A stretch of 64,000 bases of DNA, taken from positions 75,855-139,854 of the IMG/VR virus record IMGVR_UViG_3300044971_002537; one strand, given 5' to 3'. Under the pieces are notes generated by a model that worked only from the letters and a program-made list of their open reading frames with translations, did not search any database and was not told the origin of the DNA. The translations under genes and the position numbers were made by a program. This document shows positions 8,450 to 60,180 of this stretch, one piece after another. The stretch's first letter is position 1, and each line of letters begins with the position of its first letter. This DNA is from a virus.

Positions 8450-8477
8450 GAAAAAAGCAGAAAACTTACAATAGCTG

Positions 8478-8490
8478 CGTATTTAAATTA
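8478..8490 (+). promoter_or_regulatory. Putative phage promoter (CGTATWWAM motif)
   Basis: CGTATTTAAATTA then GAGG RBS and ATG 8502. Confidence 0.6.
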
Positions 8491-8501
8491 TGAGGTAACC
8501 A

Positions 8502-11410: not shown

Positions 11411-13006
11411 ATGCTGCTCGATGACAAAACAATTAAAGAATTTGGCTATTCACAAACTTCACTTAGCAAGCACTCAAAAAATATGCTCTGGCTTAAGTGT
11501 GATTACTGTAGTAATGAGTATACCAATGCACACTGCCGAAGAGTAAAGTCAAATGCAATGCTGGATAAAGACGCATGTAGAAGCTGTAGGATGATAAAAA
11601 TAGGCGATATTAACTTTATCAAACTTGGGGTAAGAAATGTTTTTGAGCTAAAGTCTACCAAGGATAAATTAACTAAGACAAATCTGGATAGGTATGGAGT
11701 TGAAAGACCATCACAATCTCAGGCCATTAAGGATAAAGTTAAAGACACCATGATGGAGAGATATGGTGTCGATAAGATAATGGATATAGACGGGGTAAGA
11801 GACAAGATTAAAGAGACTAACTTAAAGAAGTATGGTGTTGAGAATGCTTCTTCGGTTGAGGAGTTCAAGGAGAAAAGGAAGAATACGTGCAAAGAGAGAT
11901 TTGGTAAAGAGACATATCTCGGGTCTGAAGATTGTATCAAGAAAACAAAGGAGGTCACTGGGGTCGACAATGTGTTCCAGCTAGAATCGGTAAAAGAGAA
12001 GTCTAGACAAACTATGCTAGAGAAGTATGGCGTAGATAATCTAATGAAGTTGCCAGAGGTGAGAAAGGATAGGATCAAGAAATGCAGACAGACCAAGATA
12101 GATAAAGGAATATTAGCTATTCATAAGGGCAGAACCAAAAGAGAATGGGCAGAAGAAACTGGCTTTTCTAGGTCCCGATTTAGCGTTCTAGTAAAAGAGA
12201 ACGGGTGGGAATTGGCTGTTAAGATGACCCCACGAATTAGTTCCCTAGAAGCAATAGTCGAGGATTGGCTGAAGCAAGCTGGGATAGAGTATAGCAAGCA
12301 GGTAAAAATTGGCAGATATTATGCCGATTTCACAATAGGTAATTTGGCCATCGAACTCAATGGTACTTATTGGCATAGTGAACTACACAAAAAGGACGAC
12401 TATCACGTTAAGAAGAGAGAGTTCTATATTGAGCAAGGATTCGTACCGCTATTCTTTGGTGAAGATGAAGTCACTCAAAAGTTCCATATAATTAAATCTA
12501 TCATCCTCAACAAACTTGGCAAGAGTACCCGCCTATTCGCTCGCAAGCTCAAAATTGGCCAAGTCGGTAAAAAAGAAGGTGCCAAATTTTTAGAGGACAA
12601 CCATCTCATGGGACAGGGGCGGGGCGAATGCATCGGCCTTTATGATGGTACTGAGTTAGTAAGCCTAATGAGGCTTCGTCGAGTCAAGGGAAACGATTGG
12701 GAGATTTCCAGATTTTGTAACAAGGTTGGCCATTCGATTGTGGGCGGTTTGAGTAAGATCCTCTCCTTTTTTACTGAGGTGTTTAAGCCCGAAGGGCTTA
12801 TTTCCTTTGTGGATTTGAGATATGGGACTGGAGACTATATGGAAGGGCTTGGCTTCGTAAGGGGCAAGGCTTTTAAGAGCTTTAAATGGACAGATGGTAA
12901 GAATTTGTTTAATCGCATGAAATTCCCATCTAATACTGGCTATGATCATAAGCTCTATAAGTTGTGGGATTGTGGTCAGCTCAAGTTTTCCAAGAAATTT
13001 ATGTAA
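11411..13006 (+). CDS. Free-standing Hef-like homing endonuclease with N-terminal zinc motif and tandem (E/K)(K/R)YG repeats
   Basis: CDYC...CRSC; about seven 23-aa T..(E/K)(K/R)YGV.N repeats; SSLE...ADF...AIELNGTYWHS...EDE nuclease core; C-terminal FARK...NH..G...EISRFC...GG.SK...WDCGQ domain. Confidence 0.8.
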   Translation: MLLDDKTIKEFGYSQTSLSKHSKNMLWLKCDYCSNEYTNAHCRRVKSNAMLDKDACRSCRMIKIGDINFIKLGVRNVFELKSTKDKLTKTNLDRYGVERPSQSQAIKDKVKDTMMERYGVDKIMDIDGVRDKIKETNLKKYGVENASSVEEFKEKRKNTCKERFGKETYLGSEDCIKKTKEVTGVDNVFQLESVKEKSRQTMLEKYGVDNLMKLPEVRKDRIKKCRQTKIDKGILAIHKGRTKREWAEETGFSRSRFSVLVKENGWELAVKMTPRISSLEAIVEDWLKQAGIEYSKQVKIGRYYADFTIGNLAIELNGTYWHSELHKKDDYHVKKREFYIEQGFVPLFFGEDEVTQKFHIIKSIILNKLGKSTRLFARKLKIGQVGKKEGAKFLEDNHLMGQGRGECIGLYDGTELVSLMRLRRVKGNDWEISRFCNKVGHSIVGGLSKILSFFTEVFKPEGLISFVDLRYGTGDYMEGLGFVRGKAFKSFKWTDGKNLFNRMKFPSNTGYDHKLYKLWDCGQLKFSKKFM

Positions 13007-31531: not shown

Positions 31532-34500
31532 ATGGCCCTTTACGACATATCTGCTAGGTTAGTACTAGAAAATGTAGATAGCTCTTCTGTCGACAGGGCC
31601 ATTTCTAATATAAACTCACGCCTAGAAAAAGGCACTAGGACAGCTAAAACCTTTTCTGAGACTATAACCCTTAAAGGAATAAATTTAGCTGCTTACACTG
31701 CACTCAGCGGGGTAATGGTTAGACTTGCTTCTTTTGTATCTAGTGCTACAAATGATGCTATTAAGTTTGATAAAGAATTAGCTAAATTAGCTCAAACAGT
31801 AGGAGTTAGTAATCAGGACATAAAACAACATTCTGAGTCTATTAGAAATATGTCTGTTGCTTATGGTCTATCCGCCCCAAAAATCGCAGAGACTATAAGA
31901 GTTCTGGCCCAAGCCGGTTATTCTCTAAGAGAAGCTAAAGCTGCTGCTGATGAATTAGCCAAAACAACATTGTTAGCCTCATTTGAGAGCATAGCAAACA
32001 CTACAGAAGGTTTGATTGCTATCAACAAGCAGTTCACTGAGACTGTTGGGCAGTCTGCGAGAGTTCTTTCTTTACTGAATGTGGTTGCTAAGAAGTACGC
32101 TGTTGAATCTGATGACTTGGTCGATGCGGCCAAGCGGGCGGGCGGTGTTTTTGCGGCAACTGGTGGGTCTTTAGAAGAACTTGTGACTATTTACACAACA
32201 GTCAGAGATACTACCAGAGAAAGCTCTGAGACTATCGCGACGGGTCTTAGAACAATCTTCTCTCGTCTGCAGCGGCCTAAAACGATTGACTACCTACGCC
32301 AATTTGGCATAGAGCTTACAGACCTTAAAGGGAACTTCATTGGTAACTATGAAGCCATTCTTGAAATTCAGAAGGGGATACAAAGAGCCAATATTCAGCC
32401 CGGATCTATCCAGTTCGCTGAAATAGTTGAACAGCTTGGTGGTGTTTTGCAGCAGTCGAGAGTCATTCCTCTTTTGACTCAAGGTGCCAAGATGCAGAGG
32501 ATTTATGCAGATGCTCAGAATGCTGCCTCTGAGACTGCTGCCGACTTGGCCAAGGCTCAAGAGACATTAGCTTTTAAGATAACTCAAACTCAGCAGAACT
32601 TTTCAAAGCTGATTGGGGATATCATGGATACTGCCTCCTTTAAAGCTATGGTCTCTGTGGTTTTGTCTTTGACTAATGCATTCATCGGGTTCGCTGATTC
32701 TATCAAGGAGCTTATTCCACTTATAGCTACTTTGGGGGCAATTAAGTTAGCAAGATCAGCTTTTCAGGTGTTGCCGGGTTCTAGTTTTGGTAGTATGAGG
32801 ACTCCTATCAAGAGAGCAAGAGGTGGGTTTGTTCCCGGTAGCGGGAGTGGGGACACTGTACCGGCTATGTTGGAGCCCGGCGAATTCGTTATCAGGAAGA
32901 GTGCGGCTCAGGCGATGGGGGCTGACGCTTTGCATGGGATCAATAAATATGGCTTTGGGGGCACAGTAGAGAAATTAAGCGATTCTTATAAGAGCATTAA
33001 AACCCTTAAAGGCTTTAAAGATTCTTCAGGTAATATTAGTGCTCTAGCTAAAAGAAAAATGAATTATACGGCTAATTTTAAAAACGTAATACCAAATCAG
33101 AAAGATATTGAGCTATTCCATAAATTGAGTGGCCCGTATGGAAAAAGATTTGAGCAGGTTCTATCTAAGAGTAGAAGATTTAAAACTGGTCGGCCATCTA
33201 CTAATCCATATGCATATGTAGATTTTCCATATTCTCCCGGAGGTGCTTCTGAAGCTAAATTCATGAAGGAGGGAACCACGTATAGTGATGATGATAATAT
33301 AAAGGGGGCAACACATGCAGGTATTGCTGCGAAGGCCCTATTATTATCTGCTTCTAATAACGCGAACAGAAGAATACGAGGAATGGAGATTAGGCAGAAG
33401 GATCTTAGTCCAAAATCTGTTACTACGTATGTAACCGATCCAGATTTATGGACGATGAAGCGGAAAAAGAAAGTGGGTATAAGAAGGGCTACTGGTGGTG
33501 GAATTTCTGGTACAGATACAGTGCCAGCACTGCTTACTCCCGGCGAGTTTGTCGTTAACAAGAAGTCCGCACAAGCATTTGGTTATGGAAATCTCCATAA
33601 GGTCAATAAATATGCTAAGGGAGGAACTGTTTCTGGTATACAGAGATTTTTTGAAGGTGGCGTTGCTGAAAAAGATGTTGTTAGAGCGCAAGGAAATGTG
33701 ATAAAAGACCTTGAGCATGCTAGTAGGGTCTTTACAGGTGTGCTAGAGTTGATGCCCGAAACTCTCCAAAACAGTATATTGAGCACATTCAAAGGCATTG
33801 AGAATGTTCAAGCTGGTGCATCGCCCCAACTTGGAAGCTCAAAAGCTTTTGGAGAAGGCACTCGGGGTAGAGCTACAGTTGGAGATAGTGCATCTTCTAT
33901 AGGCTTACAGATTCAGGGAGCAAAAACAAGTGCTACTGAAGAGACTGTTGTGCATGAGGCTACGCACCTAGGTGATGCAGCACTTGGAGCAGCTAGGGCC
34001 AACAAGGAGGGCTATGCAGGACCCAAATTAGCTAGTCAGCAAGAAGGAACATTTCAATTTGATGTGGTGGAAAAGGTAAAGCCAATAATGCAGGCCGCTA
34101 TGGAAGCTGCTGGACATTCTGCTGAAAATATTGAAAAATACTTAGCCAAAAATGAAGAACTATTTGCTGAATTTGCTGCGAAGGCCACTCCAGAAGTAAG
34201 AAAAATTTTATTTAGCACTACAGATGCCGCCATCGGTATGGCCGAGTTAAGAAGCCACCTAGAAAAAGCTGGAAGCACTTATGCTGGTCTTGAGGCTTCA
34301 GATATAGATCTAAGGCCATATAAATCGCAAGAAGTAAGACAAGATGAAAATTTAGCTATTACAGCATTAAATTCCCCTGTTAATAAAACTTCATCTGTCA
34401 GCAGCAGACCTTTGGCTAAAGAATTTGGACCTGAGATAGGACGGCTTGGTAAATCTGTTTCAGAGGAACAGACTAAGCTAAAGGCTATACAGGAACAAAA

Positions 34501-37500
34501 GGCACAAGTTTCAACTAGGCCGGGAGAATCTTCCAAGGAATTAGGTAAGCTTAATGAGGCAGAAGCAAAATCAATTGAGACAATTGATAAACTTAATAAA
34601 GAAAGAGATGCATTACGTTCTGTAATCATTGAAGAGAAAAATAATCTAACTAAGGGACTAAAGTCCGGAACAGCTTCTACTTTTAGGGAATCTGTTCCAT
34701 TAGCACCTGCTGTTAATAAGCCAGTCGTGCCCCCTAATCCAGCTATGGCTGCGTTTGCTAAAATGGCTCAGTCCGGTCCGAATGGCCCTAACGGTCCGAA
34801 TGGCCCAAATGGCCCGAAAGATAATAGTACAGTTGAAAAAGAAATAGAAGAAAGGGGTAAGAATTTAACTGGAACATTCTCTACATTGGCTTTGGTTGTA
34901 TCTGGAGTCGCTTCTCAATATGTAGATCAAGAAACAGCAACTGGTAGAGCAATTGGAGGAATATTAGATTTTGTGTCTGTTCTTTCTGCTGCTCAGCTTA
35001 CTTTGTCTCAATTCGGCATAGATCTTGACCCAAAAAAGATTTTTGATATTGGAAAAGACCTATTTACCGGAAAAGGTGCTAAATTAGCTGAACAAGTAAC
35101 TGGTGGGGCGAGACAAGTTGGGAAAAGCGTGTTTGGAGCTGGTAAATATGTACAGGGGATTGGTGGCAAACTTGGCCAAGGGGTAGTTGGAAAGGCCGTC
35201 ACTGGATTAGGATCACAACTTCAAACAGTAGGTGTTGGAGTTGGATCTAAAACTGCTTCTGCTGCTATTGGTACTAAGGTTGCATCTGCCGCTACTGCAG
35301 CAGCTCCATTTGTAATCGCAGGAGCATCTGTTCTAGCATTCGGGAAAGGCTTAGATTATCTACTTGGCAGAGAGCAAGAGGCTGCTAAAGCTATTGAAGA
35401 AGGCAATATAGCAAAAGCTGGAGAGACGGCAGTATCTGTTCAGGCTCAAAATGATCTTACGGCTCTGGCTACTGGGGCCGCAGTAGTGGCGACAGCATTT
35501 GGAGGCCCGTTAGTGGGTGCTGCTGTTGGCGTAGCTGTAAAACTTGCTGGGTTTATACCGGGTGTAGAATATGCTATTGGGGGCCTTAGAAATTTAGGAG
35601 CTGAGCTTGGACTACTAGAATCAACGACATCTATAGCTGCTAAGGCTCAATTTGAAGCTGCAAAAAAGAACGCCGAGAAAACAAGAGAAAAGGGACAAGA
35701 GCGACTTACAAAGCTTTCCTCAAAAGTAAAAGACAAAGAATCGGCAGATAAGGTTTTAAATAGTTCTGAGACTAAAGCAAATGTAGCTGCCGCTATCAAG
35801 GTTGCAAATGAAGCAAAAGCAGTAATTGCAGAAAACGATAAAGCGAATGTAAAAGATGCTTCAAATCTATCATATATAAAATCGTCTTCTAGAGCGGCCA
35901 GTGGTGCCGGTGGGCCGCTTGCTGGAAGTCTTGTAAAATTTTTAGGTAGCTTTGTTGCTTCAGAAGAAGAGACTAAAGCGAGAGATGAAGATAGTACAAA
36001 AAGGAAACAGGAAAGCCAAGCTGAGGCTAAAAAAAGTTTAGAACTTATTATGCCCGCTATTGATTTCAAGATGGGTGAATCTGCTGATGCTGGTAAGGGT
36101 TGGACAGAATTTTTAGATAGCTTAGGAGAAAATAAAGCACTTGTTTTAGCTTCTGGAGAAGCTACTAATTTACAAGAAAAATTTGATGAGTTAGCAATTG
36201 CTGCAAAAACCGAAGCCGCTATAAGGGCTGTACTAAATGCACAGATGCAAAAACAACTTATTACTACTACCGGGATTGCTGAAGCTAATAAAAAAGCAAT
36301 TGCCGCATCTGAACTTGGAAACGTAGTCTCTGGTTTAGCTTCTGATAGCTTTAGGGGCTCTTCTCTTTCTTCAGCCGCTTCTAGTGAAGACATAGATAAG
36401 CAATCTAGGGCTGCTGAGGCACTAGGAATAAAGGGCTATAAAGAAAATGTTTCTGCGGTCACAAAAGGCAAGTCAGAGATGACTAAGCTAGAAACCGCTT
36501 TTGCTACTGCAACTCCCGAGAAAAGACAGGCAGCTCAAGACGCTATAACAGCTAAAAAGAAAGAAATAATTAATGCGACTGGTGGAGATGCTACTGGACT
36601 AGAAGGTGAAGCTCTTGATAAGGCCTATGAATCTACCATTGAAGGTTCAGATAAGCTTAAAAACAGTCTAATAGAAGCCGCTAAGAACACAGAAACTGCA
36701 ATTAATTCATACATAGATAGTGTATCGCGAGCTTCTCAAGCTCAGACAGCATACAATGAGGCAGTATTTAATAATGCTCAAGCTGCTCAGAATAGACAGA
36801 AAGATTTACAATCATTCAAGGTTGGTGGATCTACTATATCTGAAATTAGAGATAGAAAATCGGCTATAAGCACTAATGACGCTAGGGCGAATGCTTCTAG
36901 ATTAAATTTTGTAGGAACATCAAGCAGGCTTGCTTCTACAGGAATTAAAATAGCACAAACGCAAGCTCAAGGAAATATAGTCAGTCCAGAGCTTGCTAAC
37001 ACGTTTGCTGCCCTACAAATAAAAGCTAAGGAACAGGCAGATGCTATAGGGCTAGAAACTAAAAATAGGCAAGCTCTTATAGAGGCAATAAAAGAAGAGA
37101 TGGAGATTGAAAAGAATCGCGGTCAAACATTTGAGGATTTGAATCTTGCTCTCAGCGGAGGACTTGGAAAGCAAGCGAAGAAGGAGGCAGAAAAACAGGT
37201 TAAGGCAATCAGCAGGGTTGAAGAAATTAGAAAGACCCAAGGAGACGAAGCTGCAAATGCCCAACTCGGTAAAGAAATAGACCGGGGTACTCTAAATAGA
37301 CAGATGTACACTAGCGTAATCCAAACAGAAGAAAGCCAAAGATTTAATCAGAGTGCTTCTATGATGGGAGCTAATCGTTTTGAGAGTATAGCTGGTCCCG
37401 GAGCGATTACACAAGACTCAAGATCTATAGCTACTGGAAGAATGACAGAAAGACAAAAGCAGCTCCAAGGAGAAGCCACATCTCAAACTTCTCAAATAGA

Positions 37501-37804
37501 TAAAAATGAGAAGGCCCTTTTACAGGGGCAAGACGCCAGTCTCCAGTTATTAAAAGCGTCTGCTGATATATTTGGGAATTCTATAAAAGACATGAATACT
37601 GGATTAACTGGATTTAATAATGAGCTGAAAAATATTGTAACCTCTCTACAGAGTGGCTCTATAAGTATGAAATTAGATACCACTAATGTGGTAGTAGATA
37701 TTAGCTCTCCTGAAGGACTAGAGGCATTGTCAAAGCAGATGAGGCAAGAAATGAAGACATTGATAGCTGATCAACTATTAGCGCAGAAAACAGGAAGAGT
37801 ATAA
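31532..37804 (+). CDS. Tape measure protein with inserted accessory domains
   Basis: N-terminal TP901-type TMP core (FDKELAKLAQTVG, LAQAG, IATGLRTIFSRL); Ala/Gly-rich hydrophobic segments; long coiled coils; two GG..G.DTVPA.L.PGEFV motifs. Confidence 0.92.
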   Translation: MALYDISARLVLENVDSSSVDRAISNINSRLEKGTRTAKTFSETITLKGINLAAYTALSGVMVRLASFVSSATNDAIKFDKELAKLAQTVGVSNQDIKQHSESIRNMSVAYGLSAPKIAETIRVLAQAGYSLREAKAAADELAKTTLLASFESIANTTEGLIAINKQFTETVGQSARVLSLLNVVAKKYAVESDDLVDAAKRAGGVFAATGGSLEELVTIYTTVRDTTRESSETIATGLRTIFSRLQRPKTIDYLRQFGIELTDLKGNFIGNYEAILEIQKGIQRANIQPGSIQFAEIVEQLGGVLQQSRVIPLLTQGAKMQRIYADAQNAASETAADLAKAQETLAFKITQTQQNFSKLIGDIMDTASFKAMVSVVLSLTNAFIGFADSIKELIPLIATLGAIKLARSAFQVLPGSSFGSMRTPIKRARGGFVPGSGSGDTVPAMLEPGEFVIRKSAAQAMGADALHGINKYGFGGTVEKLSDSYKSIKTLKGFKDSSGNISALAKRKMNYTANFKNVIPNQKDIELFHKLSGPYGKRFEQVLSKSRRFKTGRPSTNPYAYVDFPYSPGGASEAKFMKEGTTYSDDDNIKGATHAGIAAKALLLSASNNANRRIRGMEIRQKDLSPKSVTTYVTDPDLWTMKRKKKVGIRRATGGGISGTDTVPALLTPGEFVVNKKSAQAFGYGNLHKVNKYAKGGTVSGIQRFFEGGVAEKDVVRAQGNVIKDLEHASRVFTGVLELMPETLQNSILSTFKGIENVQAGASPQLGSSKAFGEGTRGRATVGDSASSIGLQIQGAKTSATEETVVHEATHLGDAALGAARANKEGYAGPKLASQQEGTFQFDVVEKVKPIMQAAMEAAGHSAENIEKYLAKNEELFAEFAAKATPEVRKILFSTTDAAIGMAELRSHLEKAGSTYAGLEASDIDLRPYKSQEVRQDENLAITALNSPVNKTSSVSSRPLAKEFGPEIGRLGKSVSEEQTKLKAIQEQKAQVSTRPGESSKELGKLNEAEAKSIETIDKLNKERDALRSVIIEEKNNLTKGLKSGTASTFRESVPLAPAVNKPVVPPNPAMAAFAKMAQSGPNGPNGPNGPNGPKDNSTVEKEIEERGKNLTGTFSTLALVVSGVASQYVDQETATGRAIGGILDFVSVLSAAQLTLSQFGIDLDPKKIFDIGKDLFTGKGAKLAEQVTGGARQVGKSVFGAGKYVQGIGGKLGQGVVGKAVTGLGSQLQTVGVGVGSKTASAAIGTKVASAATAAAPFVIAGASVLAFGKGLDYLLGREQEAAKAIEEGNIAKAGETAVSVQAQNDLTALATGAAVVATAFGGPLVGAAVGVAVKLAGFIPGVEYAIGGLRNLGAELGLLESTTSIAAKAQFEAAKKNAEKTREKGQERLTKLSSKVKDKESADKVLNSSETKANVAAAIKVANEAKAVIAENDKANVKDASNLSYIKSSSRAASGAGGPLAGSLVKFLGSFVASEEETKARDEDSTKRKQESQAEAKKSLELIMPAIDFKMGESADAGKGWTEFLDSLGENKALVLASGEATNLQEKFDELAIAAKTEAAIRAVLNAQMQKQLITTTGIAEANKKAIAASELGNVVSGLASDSFRGSSLSSAASSEDIDKQSRAAEALGIKGYKENVSAVTKGKSEMTKLETAFATATPEKRQAAQDAITAKKKEIINATGGDATGLEGEALDKAYESTIEGSDKLKNSLIEAAKNTETAINSYIDSVSRASQAQTAYNEAVFNNAQAAQNRQKDLQSFKVGGSTISEIRDRKSAISTNDARANASRLNFVGTSSRLASTGIKIAQTQAQGNIVSPELANTFAALQIKAKEQADAIGLETKNRQALIEAIKEEMEIEKNRGQTFEDLNLALSGGLGKQAKKEAEKQVKAISRVEEIRKTQGDEAANAQLGKEIDRGTLNRQMYTSVIQTEESQRFNQSASMMGANRFESIAGPGAITQDSRSIATGRMTERQKQLQGEATSQTSQIDKNEKALLQGQDASLQLLKASADIFGNSIKDMNTGLTGFNNELKNIVTSLQSGSISMKLDTTNVVVDISSPEGLEALSKQMRQEMKTLIADQLLAQKTGRV
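34775..34819 (+). repeat. 9-nt tandem repeat encoding (GPN)4-GPK
   Basis: GGTCCGAAT GGCCCTAAC GGTCCGAAT GGCCCAAAT GGCCCGAAA. Confidence 0.85.
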
Positions 37805-50394: not shown

Positions 50395-50862
50395 ATGGAA
50401 GAAAACAAAAAGACCGATTGCTCGTGTCCACTTGCCGGTTTTTGCAATAGGCACGGGATCGAAAAATCTCCACATCAGCACAAGCTATGCCAAAATAGTC
50501 CAGCCTATTTCAACAGATGGGAAGAGTGTCGTGGTCCGGGCCAGAGATTTGTTGAGTGCAATAAAAAAGAATCGCCTACTACGATTCCAGCGATTGAGTC
50601 TCCGCAAGTCGCACCGACATTGGAGAAGCCCCATAGTATGCCGTCACTGTGGCAGCAAGCTAAAAACCTAGGATCGGCGATAAAACAACATGCTAAAAGC
50701 GGCTTTAGCCATGTATCAGAAGAAACGAAGCAGGAGAGGCTGAAGGTTTGCAGTACGTGCCCTTTTCTGTCTGGAGACAGATGTACGAAATGTGGATGTC
50801 ATACTCCCACTAAAGCTAGTTGGGCCGCTAATTCATGTCCTGCTGGCTACTGGAAGGACTAA
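50395..50862 (+). CDS. Small two-module Cys-rich protein (C-terminus DUF6171-like)
   Basis: N-terminal CSCPLAGFCNRH...K...LC; C-terminal RL.VC..CP.....RC..CGC....K.......CP.G.W. Confidence 0.7.
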   Translation: MEENKKTDCSCPLAGFCNRHGIEKSPHQHKLCQNSPAYFNRWEECRGPGQRFVECNKKESPTTIPAIESPQVAPTLEKPHSMPSLWQQAKNLGSAIKQHAKSGFSHVSEETKQERLKVCSTCPFLSGDRCTKCGCHTPTKASWAANSCPAGYWKD

Positions 50863-50880
50863 TGGAAGGACTAATGGAAG
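50851..50880. repeat. 12-nt tandem repeat at the convergence of the two genome arms
   Basis: TGGAAGGACTAA TGGAAGGACTAA TGGAAG. Confidence 0.85.
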
Positions 50881-51812
50881 TACCAATCAGTATTGCAGAC
50901 CGCATTAGGTAGAATCATCAGATCCTTCTGAGATGCGAACCATAGATTGGTTAGAAATTCAAAGAAAAGTCCTTCTTTTCTATTATTGAAACCCACTTCG
51001 GGGCCAGAGTAGATCAGGTTCTGGTCACTGTGCATACCACTACATTTTACAGATCGTAAGTTGTACGAGAATATTTTTTGGACCACCAGCGGGAATACCC
51101 TCCTATAGAATTCTTGCAATCTGAGATACACACTCCTGTGACAAATTATCTGATTGGACCAAAGACCAAAATTGCATACTTCACCGGTAAGAGAGATAGC
51201 GAATTTCTCAAAGTCTCTTATGCAGCCCTTGTTGAATAGCAGAAAAATGTCGTTATGTTTAAATAACGATCTTTCTGCCGTCAAAACTATGTTTTTGTCT
51301 CCACTATTGAACAAGATTTTGGTGTTATCCCAGTTATGAAAATTATCGATTTTATTGGGTCCAAATTTTCTATTCCAAGAAGCTGTAACAACTCCGACAT
51401 ACTCTGCTTCTGGCATATCTGCTAAAAAAGCTCTAGATTCTGCAAAACAATTGTTTTGATATTGTCTATAGGTCCCTAGGTCCATGTCCTGCAGTAAAGT
51501 AAGATACAGATAATTTCTATCTTCCCCGTCATATTGATCGGGGCGATGTCCGAGAAGTAGGATCTTACATTCGTCTAAGATCCGCTCGTCATAATCATGA
51601 ATGAATTTACGAAGATGCTTTTCTTCTTCTACGTACCTGTGTACACAAGAGATTTGATCTTGGGTCATCATGTGATATGGTGTACCAAATTTAAGATCTA
51701 GGCTATGCCTATGTCCTTCATTCTTTAGGCACATTAGCCATTTTTTCCTATCTTTAGTTTCAAAATGGCGACTACACCATCCGGGCTGTGAGCATATGCA
51801 TTCTTGCATCAC
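50871..51812 (-). CDS. DUF4422/GT111-like glycosyltransferase with N-terminal Cys/His module
   Basis: KILLLGH, NNCFAESRAF, EYVGV, SNQIICHRSVY and RKEGLFFEFL..LW match in order my recollection of DUF4422 motifs (KI.V..HK, N..YCEL, DY.G, CNMFI, R..G..SERL..W). Confidence 0.55.
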   Translation of the reverse strand: MMQECICSQPGWCSRHFETKDRKKWLMCLKNEGHRHSLDLKFGTPYHMMTQDQISCVHRYVEEEKHLRKFIHDYDERILDECKILLLGHRPDQYDGEDRNYLYLTLLQDMDLGTYRQYQNNCFAESRAFLADMPEAEYVGVVTASWNRKFGPNKIDNFHNWDNTKILFNSGDKNIVLTAERSLFKHNDIFLLFNKGCIRDFEKFAISLTGEVCNFGLWSNQIICHRSVYLRLQEFYRRVFPLVVQKIFSYNLRSVKCSGMHSDQNLIYSGPEVGFNNRKEGLFFEFLTNLWFASQKDLMILPNAVCNTDWYFH

Positions 51813-52321
51813 ACTATCTCCAGCGGAATAGTTTTTCTACAAATACTTAGCCCCTTTTCTGTCGGGACATGTAAGCAACTGTAGCCAGAAGATATCAAGT
51901 CATTAACCATCAATTTTTCAGATATCTGATGGTGTCCTGCCGTATCGTGAAATACCAACATCGTGCTATCTGTAATAACTGACTCTCTTTTTAGAAGCTC
52001 AAGACATTTAGTCTGCTCTTCGTAGCAGTGAGCATCAAAGAATATCATCTCAATGGATGACCCTATATCCTCAATTCTTATATCAGATATATTTTTGGAA
52101 ATCATAATATGGTCTGGATGGTTGATTGAAAATGAGTTCACATCAACGCTCCAAACTTTTGCTCCTGCCCAACAAAAGCATCTAGCAGAAAAGCCATCCA
52201 GACCGCCAAGTTCTAGAACTGTCTTTATCTTAAATGCCCTTATAAGGGCATATAGGAATAGGACATCATCTGCCTGTATTTCAAATCCCACTTGACAACT
52301 CCTGATACACGCCGACTCCAA
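51809..52321 (-). CDS. Class I SAM-dependent methyltransferase (Methyltransf_24-like)
   Basis: TVLELGGLDGFSA, VWSVD, MIFFDAH.YE and LVFHDT motifs. Confidence 0.85.
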   Translation of the reverse strand: MESACIRSCQVGFEIQADDVLFLYALIRAFKIKTVLELGGLDGFSARCFCWAGAKVWSVDVNSFSINHPDHIMISKNISDIRIEDIGSSIEMIFFDAHCYEEQTKCLELLKRESVITDSTMLVFHDTAGHHQISEKLMVNDLISSGYSCLHVPTEKGLSICRKTIPLEIV

Positions 52322-52508
52322 GTAAAATGCACTCTAAATAATCTCTATGCAAGGAGATAAAGTGGTGATATCTGCCATCAAATTGTCTGATAATCGGCTT
52401 ATCCCAATTCATTTTAGAAAAAGTGGCATCATCTATCGTCTGCTCTGAAATTTCAGAAAACGATACTCCTAAATTGTCTTTTTTAAACACTAGTCTATAA
52501 TACTTCAT
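52281..52508 (-). CDS. Small hypothetical protein
   Basis: Overlaps both neighbours in the operon; no motif recognised. Confidence 0.5.
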   Translation of the reverse strand: MKYYRLVFKKDNLGVSFSEISEQTIDDATFSKMNWDKPIIRQFDGRYHHFISLHRDYLECILLGVGVYQELSSGI

Positions 52509-53577
52509 ACGCCGCCTTTAAAGCTGCACCAATCGCTTGATGCATGTCTATGTATTTGTAGTGGCCTAATCGGCCACCGAATATGGTACTTCCCAAAGAA
52601 GTAAGTGCCTTGTACCTATTATAGGTGATTATGTCATGCTTGGTTCGAATCGGGTAGAATTCGTCTCCAGAATCTGACGGAAATTCTCTTGTTATCACTG
52701 TCGTATCTGTAAGCACTCCTGTGAAATGCTTGTGCTCACATATCCGCGTAAATGGAGTTCTATCAGTATAGTTCATCACACTACACCCCTGATAGTCTGG
52801 CTTTCTTACGAGTTCAGTCTCAAATCGTAGACTCCTCCAGCCTAGTCTGCCAAAATCATAGTCAAAATATTGATCAATTGGCCCAGTATAAACAACCCTC
52901 TTTGCTAATCGATCTAGTCGGCCCTTATTGGCGAAGTAATCGACCCCAGTCTCGACCCGAATTCCAGAAAGCATTTCAGTAAAAAGAGATGTGTAGCCGT
53001 CAACAGGGATGCCCTGATATGTATCCAAGAAATACCTGTCATCAAATGATAGTCTTATTGGAAGACGCTTGATGATGGATTTTGGCAAATTTTTAGGATC
53101 GGTTCCCCATTGTTTCAACGTGTAATCTCGTACGAATGTTTCATAGAGTTCAGATCCTATTTGAGATAGGATATAGGATTCCAGATCATCTTCCACGGAT
53201 GGAATTTGTCTTTGCTGAAGAGCATGGTGGGCCGACTCGGGAGTTTGGACTCCCCACATCTGATATAGCGTCATTAAGTTTATGGGAAATGAGTAGATCT
53301 TGCCAAAATTTGAAACTTTAACTGTGTGCCTGTAATTATTAAATTTGCTGAAGCGATTAACAAAGTTCCATACTTCTTCGTTCGAGGTATGAAATATATG
53401 GGCACCATATTCATGGACATCAATCCCGTTCTGCTTAGTGGTGAAACAATTTCCTGCTATATGCTCCCGCTTATCGATGACCAAACAACTTTTGCCATGG
53501 TCTTTCACAACTCTAGCAAACGTCGCCCCGAAACATCCTGCCCCGACTATAAGGAAATCTAGCATAGGCTCATCCAA
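52495..53577 (-). CDS. glf: UDP-galactopyranose mutase
   Basis: FAD-binding IVGAGCFG; IAGNC; HEYGAHIFHT; YT.KQWG; RLPIR...DDRYF.D.YQGIP..GYT; RSLRFE; TRI.EHKHF; YP; GRLG.YKY.DMHQ.I. Confidence 0.96.
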   Translation of the reverse strand: MDEPMLDFLIVGAGCFGATFARVVKDHGKSCLVIDKREHIAGNCFTTKQNGIDVHEYGAHIFHTSNEEVWNFVNRFSKFNNYRHTVKVSNFGKIYSFPINLMTLYQMWGVQTPESAHHALQQRQIPSVEDDLESYILSQIGSELYETFVRDYTLKQWGTDPKNLPKSIIKRLPIRLSFDDRYFLDTYQGIPVDGYTSLFTEMLSGIRVETGVDYFANKGRLDRLAKRVVYTGPIDQYFDYDFGRLGWRSLRFETELVRKPDYQGCSVMNYTDRTPFTRICEHKHFTGVLTDTTVITREFPSDSGDEFYPIRTKHDIITYNRYKALTSLGSTIFGGRLGHYKYIDMHQAIGAALKAAYEVL

Positions 53578-53605
53578 CGAGAAGGGGTGGCTTTCGCCAC
53601 CCTTC
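53574..53605 (-). terminator. GAAA-tetraloop hairpin after the SSB gene (terminator-like, weak U tract)
   Basis: Minus strand GAAGGGTGGC-GAAA-GCCACCCCTTCTCGT. Confidence 0.6.
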
Positions 53606-54969: not shown

Positions 54970-55776
54970 CTAAATCTTCCTAGTAACACCATCTTTAATT
55001 TCCAACTCGATCATCCTTTTGCCGAGTGGAGGAAATTCAACTTCAATCTTCCTAAGTTCAGACAGGATTAACTCATAAACATCCTTCATTCTTTTAACAC
55101 TCATCGACCTATCCAATTGTTTTACCCTTATCAGGGCGTACCCATTATTCATCAACAATCCCTGCTTAGCAGTGTCAGCAGACTGTTGCTTTCTCAGCCG
55201 ATCAGGTCCCCAAACCGGCTCGAAATGTGACGGGCCGTCAATCTCTACAGCAGTTTTAAGGTCAGGGATGAACATGTCAACCTCAAGAGCCTGACTTTGT
55301 ATGAGATTTCTGGCATGAATGATTACGCCATAGCCCTCTTCTTCAAGAGCGGCAGATACATACCTCTCAGTTTTAGACCCAATTTCGGCTGATTCTCGGA
55401 TCGCTGCGTAGGCTGCTGATCTCAGATTCTCTTTAGCTGACTCGGTCATATTATTCCACTGTTCCTTTTTGAGGTCGCGGAATTTCTGCTTTTCATCTTC
55501 CGGCAAATCAAGCCAAGCTTTTGATCTTTGGGCTGAAATGTTATTGATTGTTTCCTTGGAGAGCTTTTTCCCCTTGGTGGGATGCTTAGCGATCCCCTGA
55601 GAAATGGCTACACTCTGAGCTTCCGCATAAGAGCGGATTGGAACCCCCAAGAACTTTAGGGCTCGCCTAATCTTGGTTTCATTAGTGCCCATTTCGACAG
55701 CGATGGTGGGAACAGACTTCTTTTCATCCAAATAGGAGAAACGGAGTTTCGCAGAATTAACTATAGCGTATTGCAT
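54970..55776 (-). CDS. Free-standing endonuclease, Vsr/DUF559-like PD-(D/E)XK with HTH/NUMOD-like N-terminus
   Basis: SKTE, LEVDMFIP...AVEIDGPSHF, D..K..LL...GY.LIRV; N-terminal S...IA.E.G and KGKKLSKET. Confidence 0.8.
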   Translation of the reverse strand: MQYAIVNSAKLRFSYLDEKKSVPTIAVEMGTNETKIRRALKFLGVPIRSYAEAQSVAISQGIAKHPTKGKKLSKETINNISAQRSKAWLDLPEDEKQKFRDLKKEQWNNMTESAKENLRSAAYAAIRESAEIGSKTERYVSAALEEEGYGVIIHARNLIQSQALEVDMFIPDLKTAVEIDGPSHFEPVWGPDRLRKQQSADTAKQGLLMNNGYALIRVKQLDRSMSVKRMKDVYELILSELRKIEVEFPPLGKRMIELEIKDGVTRKI

Positions 55777-56198: not shown

Positions 56199-56875
56199 TT
56201 TTTGTCCTCTAGTATCTTCTTGGCCACTGCAGAAAACCCTAGATCATGAACGATCTGAGAAAGTCTGTCAAAATTTGTATGACCAGCAAAAATGCTGGTC
56301 TTGGACATAGTATGCTTAAATTTTTTGCCCTTAATCCCCTTGATCGCTTCAGATATGAACTCTTCTTTTGTCGAAAACTTCAGGGGGTTCCCATCTCCGG
56401 CGATTATGTCCAGCTCTCTATATCCAATATCTGATCTAGGAATCGGCGAGACTTTAGCCGTCTTATAGATGGACCAACACTCGCCAATCTGGATAGAGCC
56501 AGAATAGCACGGTAAAAGAGAAGCTGACCCAAAGAAGTTCCTCACATTGTATCCGAGTCGATATAGGTCCAACAATGAAGAGTCCATATCGGATATTGGA
56601 CCGATGTATGAGATATCAGACTCATATTTTGGCGTATTGTGTGGCTCAGTATATGATATTAGATTGATGAACGGGCGGATAGAGCCAATTTTGCTGAGGT
56701 CATATGCTCCGGGCGTCTTTTCTGGCTCATCAGTGAATACCAAGTCTGCACCGAAATCAGAAACTGATTGGCCATCGTACTTGGCCATGAATCCGACTTC
56801 CATAAGACTCTTTAGTGGAGCCATCAGGGTATGAATTCTAAAGTCATTTTTAGATGTTATCACTAGCGTTTTCAT
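56186..56875 (-). CDS. Hypothetical protein, possibly divergent CgeB-like GT-B C-terminal domain
   Basis: YESDISYIG, IY..AKV, R.LDIIA.DG and I...HT.FDRL..I resemble Glyco_trans_1_2/CgeB motifs. Confidence 0.45.
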   Translation of the reverse strand: MKTLVITSKNDFRIHTLMAPLKSLMEVGFMAKYDGQSVSDFGADLVFTDEPEKTPGAYDLSKIGSIRPFINLISYTEPHNTPKYESDISYIGPISDMDSSLLDLYRLGYNVRNFFGSASLLPCYSGSIQIGECWSIYKTAKVSPIPRSDIGYRELDIIAGDGNPLKFSTKEEFISEAIKGIKGKKFKHTMSKTSIFAGHTNFDRLSQIVHDLGFSAVAKKILEDKKCLV

Positions 56876-57497
56876 AGTCTTTATTTATCTCCAATGTTTT
56901 AACACCATCATAGACAATAGACATCGTAATCTCTTTTAAGAGCATATTGATGTACTCAAAAGTCATCTTGTTGTTTCTGAACGAGTTTATCGTCCTCTTA
57001 GCGATCTGAAAGTCCTTTTTGCAGATATAGGCTATTTGGCCCCACTTCTCTGGAAGGCCATAGGACAAATGGATAACCATTCCATCTGAATATGCGACTC
57101 CGACACTTTTCTTGTCATCATTTGACGACAGCACCAGAGATGACCTATTCGAGCAACACAGACTCGCCTCATTGAAAATCATGTCTCCATGAATGATATA
57201 GACTGCGTCATGCCTTATTGCATTTAGGGCTAGCCTGAGACTCTCGGTCTGGCTAGTTAGCTTGTAGTTATAGTTGAATAGAACACGAATGTCATACTCT
57301 CTTTTACTGATGTGTTTGACGATCCTGTCATGACCAACCCCAGTTACGACAAGAATGTCTGCCTTCTTGTCAAACCTCTGTATAGTTTTGACCTGATGGT
57401 CTAGCACAGTAAGTCCATTATACTCTAATAGGGCTTTAGCCCCTCTAGTCTGCATAGACCTTCCTGCCCCAGCAGAAAGCAATATATAGGTGCTCAT
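56850..57497 (-). CDS. Nucleotidyltransferase (LicC/MobA-like NTP transferase fold)
   Basis: ILLSAGAGRSM...GAKALL...TVLDHQ, VVTG, N..Y..T....SL.LA, IIHGD and EIN motifs. Confidence 0.8.
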   Translation of the reverse strand: MSTYILLSAGAGRSMQTRGAKALLEYNGLTVLDHQVKTIQRFDKKADILVVTGVGHDRIVKHISKREYDIRVLFNYNYKLTSQTESLRLALNAIRHDAVYIIHGDMIFNEASLCCSNRSSLVLSSNDDKKSVGVAYSDGMVIHLSYGLPEKWGQIAYICKKDFQIAKRTINSFRNNKMTFEYINMLLKEITMSIVYDGVKTLEINKDYENASDNI

Positions 57498-57862
57498 ATT
57501 ACAATCTTAAACATTGGGCGAGGAATATAGGAAATGGTATTATTCTTACAGATCTCCTCTAGCGGGTTTTTGGTTTTACATTCCACCAGCAGAGATGTCT
57601 TATAAATCATTCCGGGATAAGTTGTCCTTATTGACGGGAACATGCTGTGCAGAGAGTAAGTACCATACTGGTCGAAATAGTCGCCATAATAGGCGGCTGC
57701 ATCTTTGAGCCAAGGTCTTGGGTCTTCTGCTAATTCTCCCAGAGTTATGTCTATCGCATAGTCGCCCTGTAGCTCGCTATACTCTTTGAGAATAACGACC
57801 TCGTCGACAAATGGACTAGTCTTAGGAGCTTTGTCCCGAAATGTATAGCCGATAATCTTCAT
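57494..57862 (-). CDS. Hypothetical protein, possibly a degenerate GT-A fragment
   Basis: YYGDY and YIPRP.F resemble GT2 strands; start at MKIIG (57862) preferred. Confidence 0.4.
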   Translation of the reverse strand: MKIIGYTFRDKAPKTSPFVDEVVILKEYSELQGDYAIDITLGELAEDPRPWLKDAAAYYGDYFDQYGTYSLHSMFPSIRTTYPGMIYKTSLLVECKTKNPLEEICKNNTISYIPRPMFKIVI

Positions 57863-58535
57863 AGATTTCTTTCCAGTCTTTTGTAGCCCCATTTATTTCG
57901 AGCAATGTCTCGTGGATATTTCCCATTTGTCCTTTGAGTAATTTATAGGCAACGGCCATATAACTAATAATTCCGGTAGTCGCTAAATGCTTACTCATTT
58001 TGTAGTTCACAGAGTAGTTTAGAGCATTCAGCATATCTTTATCTACTCTATCGCCAGATTTGATGAAAAAGATCCAGCCATTTTTCGATCTCTTAAACGC
58101 TTCATCGCATCCAGAGCCGCTATATAGAGATTCAACCAACATGATACAGGAGAATCTTTGTGGGCCAAATTTCTTAGACCATTTGTCGTAACCCTCAAGC
58201 AAATTTTTGGTTGTATGACATACTATAACCCTCGGAGGCTTGGGAGTGTCAAGATTATAGATATCTTCTAGGGTTTGGTCCAGATCGTCACCTTCATCAT
58301 GCATTACCACAATGTTAGATTTGATATAGACATCTTTTTCGATATCCTCGGTTGGCTCAGACCTTCGCCACATACAGATGCGATCCACCTTGTAGAAGGT
58401 AGACTCTTCGTCTTGGTATCTAGATAGTTCTTCTCCGGCATCTCTGAATCTCTCAAGAATAAGTAGTTTGCATCCAGTCTGAACCTTACCATGCATTTCT
58501 TTAAAGACACAATCTTTACAAGTTGTACTAATCAT
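57822..58535 (-). CDS. Hypothetical protein with N-terminal four-Cys motif and GT-A-like C-terminus
   Basis: TTCKDCVF...QTGC...RIC; later LDQTL..I, VIV and NGWIFFIKSGD resemble a GT2 core. Confidence 0.45.
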   Translation of the reverse strand: MISTTCKDCVFKEMHGKVQTGCKLLILERFRDAGEELSRYQDEESTFYKVDRICMWRRSEPTEDIEKDVYIKSNIVVMHDEGDDLDQTLEDIYNLDTPKPPRVIVCHTTKNLLEGYDKWSKKFGPQRFSCIMLVESLYSGSGCDEAFKRSKNGWIFFIKSGDRVDKDMLNALNYSVNYKMSKHLATTGIISYMAVAYKLLKGQMGNIHETLLEINGATKDWKEIYEDYRLYISGQSS

Positions 58536-60180
58536 TGAGCCAGTCCTCCGATTGTAGTTTCCTCTTGCCACATCTCACGCTTTCCCAGAAATTGAATGTC
58601 TCAGCCTTGCCCTTGAACATTTTGATAACGTGGTCTCTGCTGAAATCTACAAAAGGAACCCTATTAAAGTAAGAGTTCTCCGAATAGAAGAAACCACATG
58701 GGTTGGGTTTATAGGATTTGAAGTTCAGATCCCTAAGTAGGCAGTTAGCCTCATATGAGTTAATCAGATTAGAATGGGGCAAATAGGAAGAAATAGCCCA
58801 GTCAAGAAAATCCTTATTGTTGGTGAAATTCGGGATTTTGTCATCCGGGATCTTGATTTGTCTAAATGGTTTATCCCAAGCCCCCTTTGGAGACTGGTCG
58901 AGTGAAACCATCCACTTTCCGACTACTTCGTCCCAATTGAAGTTGCGAGAGTACTCAGACAAAGTCTTCTCAGATATCGCCGCCCTATCACTCTCCGGTA
59001 AAGAGAAAAACATCTTCCAATAGGAGACAACCTCGTCTATCTCTGGAATTGCTCGATAGCACCCAGTTTCAAGCTCTAGGACTTTTGCCCTGAGTGGAAT
59101 TGGGAATCCGCCAATTTTACGGACGATGGATTCCATTGCGGAATAGTCAGTAGACATAACTGGTACTCCACAAGCAGCCGCCTCAAGCTGGCCTATGCCC
59201 ATTCCCTCTGAGTTTGAATATTGGATGTATAAGTCAAACAGGTTATAGATTTTGGCCAACTCAGCGGTCGTAGCACCATTACTTACACTAGATAGCTTTG
59301 CTGCATACTTTTTGCAGCCCTTGCATTGCTTGATCGTATCGCTAAATTTGCTGATTGATAATTTGCCGCATTCTTCGCAGGCATAGCTGAATAGGACCCG
59401 AGATGATATACCGTACTTCATCATCAATTGTGGAAGGTCCCAACCATTGTCTGGGTATGACGTATGGCAATAGAGATAAGTCTTTTCATCTCCGGTAGTG
59501 GCTAGATAAAGAGCGAAGGCCTCTAGGAGTTCGGGGAAGAGCTTTCTTCGCTGATTCCTCATGACGGTCCCAATAATTTTCCAATCGGGATCTAGACCCA
59601 TAGAGAGCCTATGTGCCGCCTTGTTAGGGACTGGCTTGAACTCGTCAGCAGCACACATCGTCACAGAACCAACTAGGTTTACTGAATCGCCAGCCTGCTC
59701 CTTGATGACCCCCTCGGCCCACTCTGAGAGAGTGTAGAAGTAGTCAGCATCGGCAAATTGATTAATCCATTCTGGATTCTGCGGGGCTGAGTCCACCGTA
59801 CTGGCCCAAGACCAAGAGAAGAATGGTCTAAATGGCGAATGCTTCACCCAAGAATCCATCCATGGATCTTTCTGCATAATTAGGCAGTCTGGCTTAAAAT
59901 CTAGGCAGGCCCTCTCGAATCTCCATGCCCCAAATTGGTTGGCCGGATTAGAGGCATATATCTGCTTTACCTCGTCAGAATCGCCCTTAGAGGGAGCCAT
60001 TGGGTAGTTCTTCCAAGGAATTTCCCTACGTCTTTCGTCATCGGCAGATCCGTAGCAGGAGATCTCGGCTACTTCATACTTGCCGGTAGCGATAAGCCGC
60101 CTAATAAGCTCACGACCGTAAGAAGCGTACCCAGTATTCAGATAAGAAGCTTCAGATCCAACTAGCACTCTTTTGAGCAT
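58528..60180 (-). CDS. GT-B (GT4-like) glycosyltransferase with zinc-ribbon insertion
   Basis: TGYA, IIGTVMRNQRRK, LAKIYNLFD.YIQ.S.SEGMGIGQLEAAACGVPV..TDYSAM.(E-x7-E), FNWD; insertion CEEC-x14-CKGC. Confidence 0.9.
   Translation of the reverse strand: MLKRVLVGSEASYLNTGYASYGRELIRRLIATGKYEVAEISCYGSADDERRREIPWKNYPMAPSKGDSDEVKQIYASNPANQFGAWRFERACLDFKPDCLIMQKDPWMDSWVKHSPFRPFFSWSWASTVDSAPQNPEWINQFADADYFYTLSEWAEGVIKEQAGDSVNLVGSVTMCAADEFKPVPNKAAHRLSMGLDPDWKIIGTVMRNQRRKLFPELLEAFALYLATTGDEKTYLYCHTSYPDNGWDLPQLMMKYGISSRVLFSYACEECGKLSISKFSDTIKQCKGCKKYAAKLSSVSNGATTAELAKIYNLFDLYIQYSNSEGMGIGQLEAAACGVPVMSTDYSAMESIVRKIGGFPIPLRAKVLELETGCYRAIPEIDEVVSYWKMFFSLPESDRAAISEKTLSEYSRNFNWDEVVGKWMVSLDQSPKGAWDKPFRQIKIPDDKIPNFTNNKDFLDWAISSYLPHSNLINSYEANCLLRDLNFKSYKPNPCGFFYSENSYFNRVPFVDFSRDHVIKMFKGKAETFNFWESVRCGKRKLQSEDWLND

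Follow-up and report, generated by a model that had tools for sequence, protein, structure and literature searches.

In chlorovirus PBCV-1 the protein A064R, built as two glycosyltransferases followed by a methyltransferase, acts on the major capsid protein, and in vaccinia virus (E10R-A2.5L-G4L) and African swine fever virus (pB119L) a virus-encoded Erv-type oxidase serves Cys-rich virion proteins in cytoplasmic disulfide pathways. For the virion glycosylation of mycobacteriophages we know of no shared N-terminal tag, UDP-galactopyranose mutase (Glf) or Cys-rich partner. In that system, described by Freeman et al. (2023) as cited in PMC11600133, phages of cluster O and of the Che8 type modify their own structural proteins with tandem glycosyltransferases (GTs) and an O-methyltransferase, the targets being capsid and tail-tube subunits (PMC11600133). 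Family GT111 is known only as one of UDP-galactofuranose (UDP-Galf) transferases; its Kingella member PamA is encoded beside a Glf, PamB, and the known members, WbbM and PamA, build lipid-linked O-antigen or lipopolysaccharide galactan (PMC12269835). For Rhizobium phage RL38J1, a paper of 2026 proposes UDP-Galf made by a phage-encoded Glf as the donor in DNA glycosylation (PMC13326640). Here we describe a Cys/His module that is shared by a small protein and a glycosyltransferase in the viral record IMGVR_UViG_3300044971_002537, the latter being encoded together with a Glf and a probable methyltransferase. The 64,000 nucleotides analysed, called the window below, are the minus strand, bases 3570-67569, of a linear viral contig of 74,611 bases whose completeness is about 48% (CheckV).

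Like the mycobacteriophages, the window encodes GTs, here together with a probable methyltransferase; the acceptor is here only predicted, and the locus differs in that the Cys/His module of the enzyme is shared with a neighbouring small protein. WbbM (6U4B) is the best structural match of the window GT, and Glf is adjacent to the GT both here and in the PamA-PamB pair, whereas the window enzyme carries an extra N-terminal module and has neither a second GT domain nor a Pfam DUF4422 match. The vaccinia and African swine fever virus pathways resemble the many module proteins that carry an Erv/ALR domain and follow a Cys-rich gene; they differ in having no shared N-terminal module and no use of one on GTs, and no Erv gene was found in the window or its relatives. 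A064R, a multi-domain protein with GT and methyltransferase activity towards a structural protein, is analogous to a module-GT2-methyltransferase fusion described below (P0173), yet it comes from a eukaryotic virus, lacks a Cys/His tag and works with rhamnose-based chemistry; 2P72, which we take to be the structure of an A064R domain, matched the model of the window GT at Z 8.1. RL38J1 shares with the window a phage Glf, several GTs and a nucleotide kinase, but its pathway to glycosylated 5-hydroxycytosine DNA centres on a thymidylate-synthase-like hydroxymethylase/hydroxylase (PF00303), which was not found in the window contig or in four relatives (36-86% complete, none complete). The statement in the initial annotation of this locus that no phage Galf system with such a tag had been described therefore needs qualifying, as a phage Glf has already been proposed to serve DNA glycosylation (PMC13326640).

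The Cys/His module and its two copies

The initial annotation had noted that the last plus-strand gene and the convergent minus-strand gene begin with the same motif, identically spaced up to a Lys and a final Cys. A regular-expression search for C-x-C-x3-G-[FWY]-C-x-R-H in all six frames of the window returned two sites only, 50419-50454 on the plus strand and 51800-51765 on the minus strand; both are followed by the Lys and the last Cys at the reported spacing, and no third copy was found in the whole 74,611-base contig. Both copies are N-terminal in real open reading frames (ORFs), encoding proteins of 155 and 313 aa (Table 1), at whose extreme N-termini C-x-C-x5-C-x2-H-x3-K-x7-C is present, and alignments show that homologues of each protein keep the motif. 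A hidden Markov model (HMM) made from 148 unrelated module sequences, without any member of the GT family, matched residues 2-39 of the 313-aa protein at model positions 2-39 (E 1.5e-8); against the six-frame background of the window its sole other match was the 155-aa ORF (E 6e-25). Because this independent model recovers the GT copy and nothing else except the 155-aa ORF, the two motifs are homologous as judged from their sequences, and the exactly spaced pair first noted is confirmed as a pair of relatives. Chance similarity was considered and is ruled out by the same result.

The shared motif is, by sequence comparison, the core of an unnamed N-terminal Cys/His domain of about 47 residues in tailed-phage proteins. 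Its signature, C-x-C-x5-C-x2-H-x3-K-x7-C, is usually closed by W-E-x-G-x-G-P-G-Q; in the 155-aa protein this end is present in the variant form W-E-E-C-R-G-P-G-Q, with a Cys at the first Gly position. A profile built from ten N-termini was searched against 1.84 billion representative proteins and found 727 protein clusters at E<=1e-3, 218 of them at E<=1e-10. Across 148 module representatives the four Cys, the His and the Lys of the signature are invariant, and G, R, L, W and G-P-x-Q nearly so; the module almost always starts within the first ten residues of the protein. No model in Pfam or PHROG covers it.

The AlphaFold2 model of the 155-aa protein (pLDDT 84.6, from a 123-sequence alignment) has two separately folded domains. 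The module forms a beta-hairpin (residues 15-24) and two helices (26-34 and 36-43) at a pLDDT of about 90, and a disordered linker joins it to the independently folded DUF6171 domain. Four Cys and one His in so small a domain suggest a metal site, and we regard the module as a predicted metal-binding domain. Comparison of the model with solved structures gave Foldseek matches at E>4 and a best VIA Z of 2.6, in rows that span residues 76-155 only and barely tested the module (7-52); such a lack of solved neighbours is no proof of a new fold. Atlas neighbours of the 155-aa protein were unnamed or DUF6171 clusters.

Table 1. Features of the Cys/His-module locus, in window coordinates.
Feature	Coordinates	Strand	Basis or remark
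Cys-rich protein, 1862 aa	44789-50377	+	90 Cys (4.8%); last large gene of the structural operon
Two-domain protein, 155 aa (module + DUF6171)	50395-50862	+	ORF, Pfam, PHROG, AlphaFold2
Cys/His module of the 155-aa protein (residues 7-52)	50413-50550	+	Profile and HMM matches
DUF6171-type Cys-rich C-terminal domain (residues 107-153)	50713-50853	+	PF19668 E 7.4e-7; phrog_13558 E 1.7e-10
Glycosyltransferase, 313 aa	50871-51812	-	Last gene of the minus-strand block; start GTG 51812 or ATG 51809 overlaps the methyltransferase stop
GT-A catalytic domain (residues 78-305), closest to GT111	50898-51581	-	VIA-align, Foldseek
Divergent, shortened Cys/His module of the GT (residues 2-39)	51696-51809	-	Independent HMM, alignments
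Probable class I S-adenosylmethionine (SAM) methyltransferase, Methyltransf_24 / CmcI type	51809-52321	-	Sub-threshold Pfam matches, atlas neighbours
Conserved 75-aa ORF, unknown function	52281-52508	-	Between Glf and methyltransferase; no family match
UDP-galactopyranose mutase (Glf)	52495-53577	-	PF03275 E 1.4e-70; NAD_binding_8 (PF13450) E 1.2e-19; phrog_9677 E 1.8e-125
G+C-rich hairpin	53585-53602	-	Separates the Glf cassette from the conserved middle-gene block; 7-bp stem, 6 G-C pairs, weak T tail (terminator-like scan)
Lineage-wide sugar-gene block	56850-60180	-	Pfam and PHROG matches
MobA-like nucleotidyltransferase	56850-57497	-	Sugar-gene block
GT2-like protein with N-terminal Cys motif	57822-58571	-	Sugar-gene block
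GT4	58528-60180	-	Sugar-gene block

Passengers and gene neighbourhood of the module

The domains carried behind the module were tallied with Pfam on the 148 representatives. DUF6171 was found in 20 and Erv1/Alr in 16, followed by GT2 (four), GT4 (one or two), GT8 (one) and Methyltransf_24 (one); a local iterated HMM detected an Erv-like domain in 25 of the 148 representatives and in 12 of 48 viral module genes (17-25%). The rest of the module proteins are mostly of 100-200 residues, with short recurring Cys-containing C-termini. As Erv/ALR thiol oxidases and DUF6171 are the commonest partners, the module is not specific to glycosylation, and oxidases are served at least as often as sugar enzymes. 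The glycosylation tag of the initial annotation is supported only in a wider sense; the association that it had named as a check is seen, the motif being fused in other phages to GT2, GT4, GT8 and methyltransferase domains and its genes following the Cys-rich tail-region genes described below.

Two fusions bear on the window directly. P0173 is organised as module-GT2-methyltransferase, and P0044 as module-GT2-[module+DUF6171]; in the latter a GT is joined to a complete protein of the 155-aa type, and this module+DUF6171 unit aligns with the entire window protein (E 1.6e-21). At locus L015 the module is encoded as a gene of its own, and the next gene encodes a homologue of the GT part of P0173 (E 1.5e-23); close behind these two come a pyruvyl-transferase-like and an Erv1-like gene. 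Two genes upstream of the module gene, the same locus encodes a 221-aa tail-region protein (L015:6500-7165) that has a C-S-C-C cluster at its N-terminus and contains a serine tract about 90 residues long, the tract being an obvious candidate O-glycosylation substrate. A literature search returned no paper mentioning DUF6171, and none on a phage-encoded Erv oxidase by title or abstract opening.

Gene neighbourhoods were sampled by scanning IMG/VR for the codon pattern of W-E-x-G-x-G-P-G-Q, which gave 48 module genes in 31 clusters at >=70% identity. A same-strand ORF of at least 150 aa abuts the module gene upstream in 27 of the 31 clusters, and in 25 of these 27 non-redundant loci its Cys content is at least 3.4%. 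The median Cys content is 5.5% in the abutting upstream ORFs, compared with 1.6% in 82 other neighbours (Mann-Whitney p = 2e-10), and 15 of the 27 share a 4-base ATGA overlap with the module gene. The module gene also closes the run of tail genes in unrelated phages: it follows the tape-measure gene and three further genes in L036, is the last gene before the integrase in L038, and lies downstream of a TMP_3 tape-measure gene in L015. Cys makes up 10.3% of the protein encoded immediately upstream in L036 and 5.7% in L038, as compared with 0-2% for the other structural genes. The Cys-rich gene and the module gene lie at 8156-9004 and 9001-11646 in L036, and at 7997-9004 and 9001-10167 in L038. 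Both of these proteins belong to one BLAST-linked family that comprises 38 upstream proteins. Other neighbours of module genes are mostly of unknown function, with a few tail-fibre or tail PHROGs, two glycosyltransferases and two galactose-3-O-sulfotransferase-like genes. A tie between the tag and Cys-rich tail-region genes is supported by gene neighbourhood only, and the idea of a tag also by the domain fusions.

The Cys-rich upstream family is unnamed, its members having about 200-440 aa and 4-11% Cys (for example L046:3768-4970, L055:5034-6125 and L088:714-1622, among the IMG/VR loci L043-L101). They start with an N-terminal C-C-C-x3-C cluster, followed by a D-x-F-N-R segment and further conserved Cys, and have no PHROG and no PDB relative. 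Very long Cys-free ORFs occur just downstream of the module gene in several of the IMG/VR loci (L051, L068 and L094, among others).

In the window the 155-aa gene starts 17 nt past the stop of the gene for the 1862-aa, 90-Cys protein, and in all relatives examined a gene of this type adjoins the giant gene at its 3' end, mostly on the same strand and a few bases beyond it. Cys accounts for 4.8% of the 1862-aa protein versus 0-1.6% of the other structural ORFs, and many of its Cys are invariant in 12 homologues; it has no PHROG, Pfam or PDB relative, and neither has the 1186-aa protein a relative in the PDB. The DUF6171 assignment of the 155-aa protein is sound, PF19668 scoring 29.9 bits over a cut-off of 27 at model positions 34-80 of 80. 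When the 155-aa protein was modelled in complex with giant-protein residues 1300-1862, the score was 0.00, which speaks neither for nor against binding. The GT gene, for its part, is convergent with the Cys-rich pair and is not coupled to any Cys-rich gene.

One sub-lineage (L022, L029-L032) has the module+DUF6171 gene inverted, near position 10001 (8583 in L032), so that it converges with the giant protein gene and ends the block of GT4, GT2-like and nucleotidyltransferase genes. Where its gene is complete, the giant protein of this sub-lineage has 2003-2075 aa and 4.0-4.8% Cys.

The Glf cassette and the surrounding genes

The ORF map agrees with the overlapping minus-strand run of Glf, 75-aa ORF, methyltransferase and GT that had been reported. 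Its first gene is certain from its sequence to be a Glf: PF03275 covers positions 2-203 of 203 with the E-value given in Table 1, the G-x-G-x-x-G of an N-terminal FAD-binding Rossmann motif stands at residues 12-17, and the initial description of this gene as an unambiguous UDP-galactopyranose mutase is upheld. Its probable start is ATG 53565. The 75-aa ORF has the same length and position in relatives L003-L009. For the methyltransferase the likely real start is GTG 52291 (160 aa; relatives are called at 160-162 aa), and its sequence contains LELGGLDG at what would be motif I, for which G-x-G was sought. The call of a probable SAM methyltransferase draws on sub-threshold Pfam matches (Methyltransf_3 E 0.0053, Methyltransf_24 E 0.052) and on its atlas feature (language-model) neighbours, which carry Methyltransf_24, Methyltransf_3 or RMNT_CmcI. 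No pairwise similarity was found between this protein and the methyltransferase domain of P0173, and a capping role for it is conjecture.

In the source gene call the 313-aa protein starts at residue 48. The first 47 residues are nevertheless taken as coding, because they are conserved in five homologues (60-68% identity) and because this start overlaps the stop codon of the gene before it. In the catalytic domain D109-x-D111 is conserved after the strand at residues 102-106. VIA-align placed this domain on residues 7-262 of WbbM (6u4b) with Z 12.6 (rmsd 3.3, 195 residues aligned; next family Z 8.9), and a Foldseek comparison with WbbM, which had been suggested as a check, ranked 6u4b first (E 6.5e-3). 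Atlas neighbours of the protein are viral DUF4422 clusters. Direct Pfam and PHROG scans of the protein found nothing, nor did a search of its family profile against PDB sequences; PF14393 (DUF4422) was weakly matched by four of 12 members of the GT family (best E 0.0026, below cut-off) and had no match in a six-frame search of the whole genome contig. Since no Pfam score was reached, we call the protein GT111-like and not a member of the family. The earlier assignment of this gene as a DUF4422/GT111 Galf transferase accordingly holds for the fold, a GT-A domain nearest to WbbM, and fails for the Pfam match.

This GT or its homologues lie next to Glf or two genes away from it in the window, L003-L009, L010 and G002, which together represent three separate contexts. 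This recurrent pairing of Glf with a GT111-like protein is good evidence that the 313-aa enzyme uses the product of Glf. In TARA phage L010 and in the 130-kb relative G002 the homologues that abut Glf have no module, which shows that the tag is an add-on. Synthesis of a donor together with a galactofuranosyl-type transferase is therefore well supported, the donor sugar itself being inferred. The gene directly before Glf in G002 (L042:8482-11226) encodes a 550-aa protein that is partly homologous to the window GT; its extra region is not a module, and its first residues have no C-x-C motif. In L010, a phage broadly of the group to which the window belongs, the corresponding segment (L010:4444-8004), between a deoxynucleoside monophosphate (dNMP) kinase gene and split DNA polymerase III alpha genes, holds two GT111-like paralogues, a GT29 (sialyltransferase-family) gene, a cytidylyltransferase-like gene and Glf.

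The plus strand of the window is a long structural operon that runs from the terminase (4399-6387) to very large proteins of no known family and closes with the genes for the 554-aa, 1862-aa and 155-aa proteins. Convergent with it is the minus-strand block, which begins with a DnaB-type helicase, a primase, a dNMP kinase (PF21448), a PD-(D/E)XK nuclease, an RNase T-like exonuclease and a sigma-70-like factor, continues with the GT4, the GT2-like protein, the MobA-like nucleotidyltransferase and several unknown genes, and ends with the Glf cassette. The sugar-gene block in its middle, which also includes a 132-aa ORF, is kept in L012, L014, L017 and L022-L032 even without Glf, methyltransferase and GT111-like genes. 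The genes at the convergent junction vary: the window has the cassette of four, L012 has an extra GT4, which comes after the 155-aa homologue and lacks the module, and L014 has other genes.

Several features of this region were observed in passing. The GT2-like protein of about 245 aa has a Cys-containing start of its own, C-x2-C-x11-C in the window and F-C-x2-C-C-F-Y...C-x-H in relatives, which is unrelated to the module. A conserved Cys-free protein of 268 aa (54970-55776) lies amid the sugar-gene block in all relatives; by eye it has a helix-turn-helix-like region at the N-terminus and, at the C-terminus, E-I-D-G-x-x-H, reminiscent of Vsr/DUF559-type endonucleases. The two convergent module genes end against each other at 50848-50885, inside the 12-base direct repeat TGGAAGGACTAA, which occurs twice and has a partial third copy. 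The repeat contains the stop of the plus-strand gene; the stop of the minus-strand gene begins in the second copy, and its last codons overlap the partial copy. Recombination at the cassette junction may have left this repeat as a scar. The hairpin upstream of Glf may mark the boundary of the cassette or act as an attenuator, and a promoter and terminator scan of the region found terminator-like sites to be no more numerous than in shuffled sequences. Within the structural operon, a 2090-aa protein (31532-37804) encoded a few genes upstream of the 90-Cys protein has no Cys at all, and a 531-aa HNH/homing-endonuclease-like gene is present (11411-13006; phrog_3339, E 1.9e-68).

The role of the module

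Our preferred explanation, which we put forward tentatively and with somewhat less than even confidence, is that the module is an adaptor linking maturation enzymes and small helpers to a Cys-rich tail protein, and that the cassette in the window would glycosylate such an acceptor. Module genes are almost always placed right after the gene of a Cys-rich distal tail-region protein, usually translationally coupled to it by an ATGA overlap, and the passenger behind the module varies between an Erv/ALR thiol oxidase, a GT of several families, a methyltransferase and a small Cys-rich domain (DUF6171). In the window, the 155-aa protein would be the helper coupled to the 1862-aa, 90-Cys protein; Glf would make UDP-galactofuranose, the module-tagged GT111-like GT-A enzyme would transfer the galactofuranose, and the small methyltransferase would probably O-methylate the sugar. 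The preferred acceptor would be the Cys-rich tail protein itself or a glycan that the conserved block of GT4, GT2-like protein and nucleotidyltransferase would assemble on it. Physical docking and the identity of the acceptor are what we infer here from sequence and gene order.

A number of observations weigh against this proposal. The GT copy of the module is a shortened, divergent variant in which the W-E-x-G-x-G-P-G-Q end is absent, and the AlphaFold2 model of the 313-aa protein is mediocre (pLDDT 60), with no match of that protein to Pfam DUF4422 (PF14393) at E<=1. It is from its position only that the 1862-aa protein is presumed to be a distal tail or fibre protein; an HMM of the Cys-rich upstream family matched neither it nor the 554-aa protein of the window, so that the giant protein is not detectably homologous to that family, and no Ser/Thr-rich acceptor tract is evident in the structural proteins of the window, in a search that was uninformative. 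The cassette is encoded on the strand of the replication and middle genes and not in the late operon. In L010 and G002 the GT111-like homologues lie among replication genes, far from tail genes; these pairs have no module either, and a Galf pair thus needs neither the tag nor a tail context. Lastly, the module is highly conserved and its presumed partners are diverse, and a cofactor-binding or redox role therefore fits as well as docking.

Such a role is the core of an alternative that we consider unlikely but a serious competitor, namely that the module is a cofactor or redox domain (a C-x-C shuttle disulfide, or a Zn or Fe-S site in a disulfide relay for Cys-rich tail proteins) and not a docking tag. 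On a glycosyltransferase it would then be structural or regulatory, and the cassette would modify something else, most probably a glycan of the host envelope or a lipid-linked intermediate, with receptor masking or superinfection exclusion as the outcome. Shuttle disulfides (C-x-x-C or C-x-C) on flexible arms are a feature of Erv enzymes; the rank of Erv/ALR oxidases as the commonest enzymatic passenger, the low-complexity linker behind the module and its strong conservation despite diverse neighbouring Cys-rich proteins all fit this alternative. The repeated fusion of the module to four GT families and a methyltransferase, and of a GT to a whole module+DUF6171 unit, is left unexplained by it, and no Erv1/Alr gene was found in the contig or in relatives up to 86% complete. 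An envelope acceptor agrees with the known GT111 examples WbbM and PamA, which act on lipid-linked surface glycans (PMC12269835), and with the position of the module-less GT111-like homologues away from tail genes, although conversion of surface glycans is a typical trait of temperate phages, and the contig showed no integrase. We think it improbable that the module is instead a virion-incorporation or oligomerisation domain, in which case module proteins would be minor tail components sitting on the Cys-rich protein and the particle would contain the fused enzymes. A stoichiometric complex is indeed suggested by the close translational coupling to a structural-region gene, and most module proteins, at 100-200 aa, have non-enzymatic Cys-rich C-termini; against this, we know of no obvious use for nucleotide-sugar-dependent or FAD/O2-dependent enzymes outside the cell, and in one sub-lineage the module gene is on the non-structural strand.

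Least credible, and in our judgement very improbable, is a role of the sugar genes, Glf and the GT111-like enzyme among them, in DNA hypermodification by glycosylated pyrimidines. The cassette does end a block with a primase, a dNMP kinase, nucleases and a DnaB-type helicase, and in L010 Glf and the GT stand between DNA polymerase III genes. The thymidylate-synthase-like enzyme expected of such a pathway was, however, not found in the contig or in four relatives of 36-86% completeness, and the neighbourhood rule of the tag points to a protein partner. The fold differs as well: the window transferase is a GT-A enzyme, whereas the DNA glycosyltransferases tabulated for RL38J1 have structural matches that we take to be GT-B enzymes.

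The adaptor proposal can be widened to a general 'maturase tag', a metal-binding module that would recognise Cys-rich distal tail proteins and recruit interchangeable thiol oxidases, GTs of several families and a methyltransferase, here for the delivery of methylated galactofuranose to the 90-Cys protein. This broader version is possible, and we hold it with more doubt than belief. If it is true, hundreds of uncultured phage lineages would share a plug-in form of post-translational tailoring of the host-binding organelle. Tail tips decide the host range of phages, and little is known of their chemical maturation. The module family gives one sequence handle that joins Cys-rich tail-region genes, Erv-type oxidases and glycosyltransferases in hundreds of uncultured lineages; an HMM of about 47 residues could be used to find tail-maturation systems, and each abutting gene pair points to a candidate substrate of its enzyme. 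Should the module prove to be a docking device, the tag could direct enzymes to engineered phage fibres.

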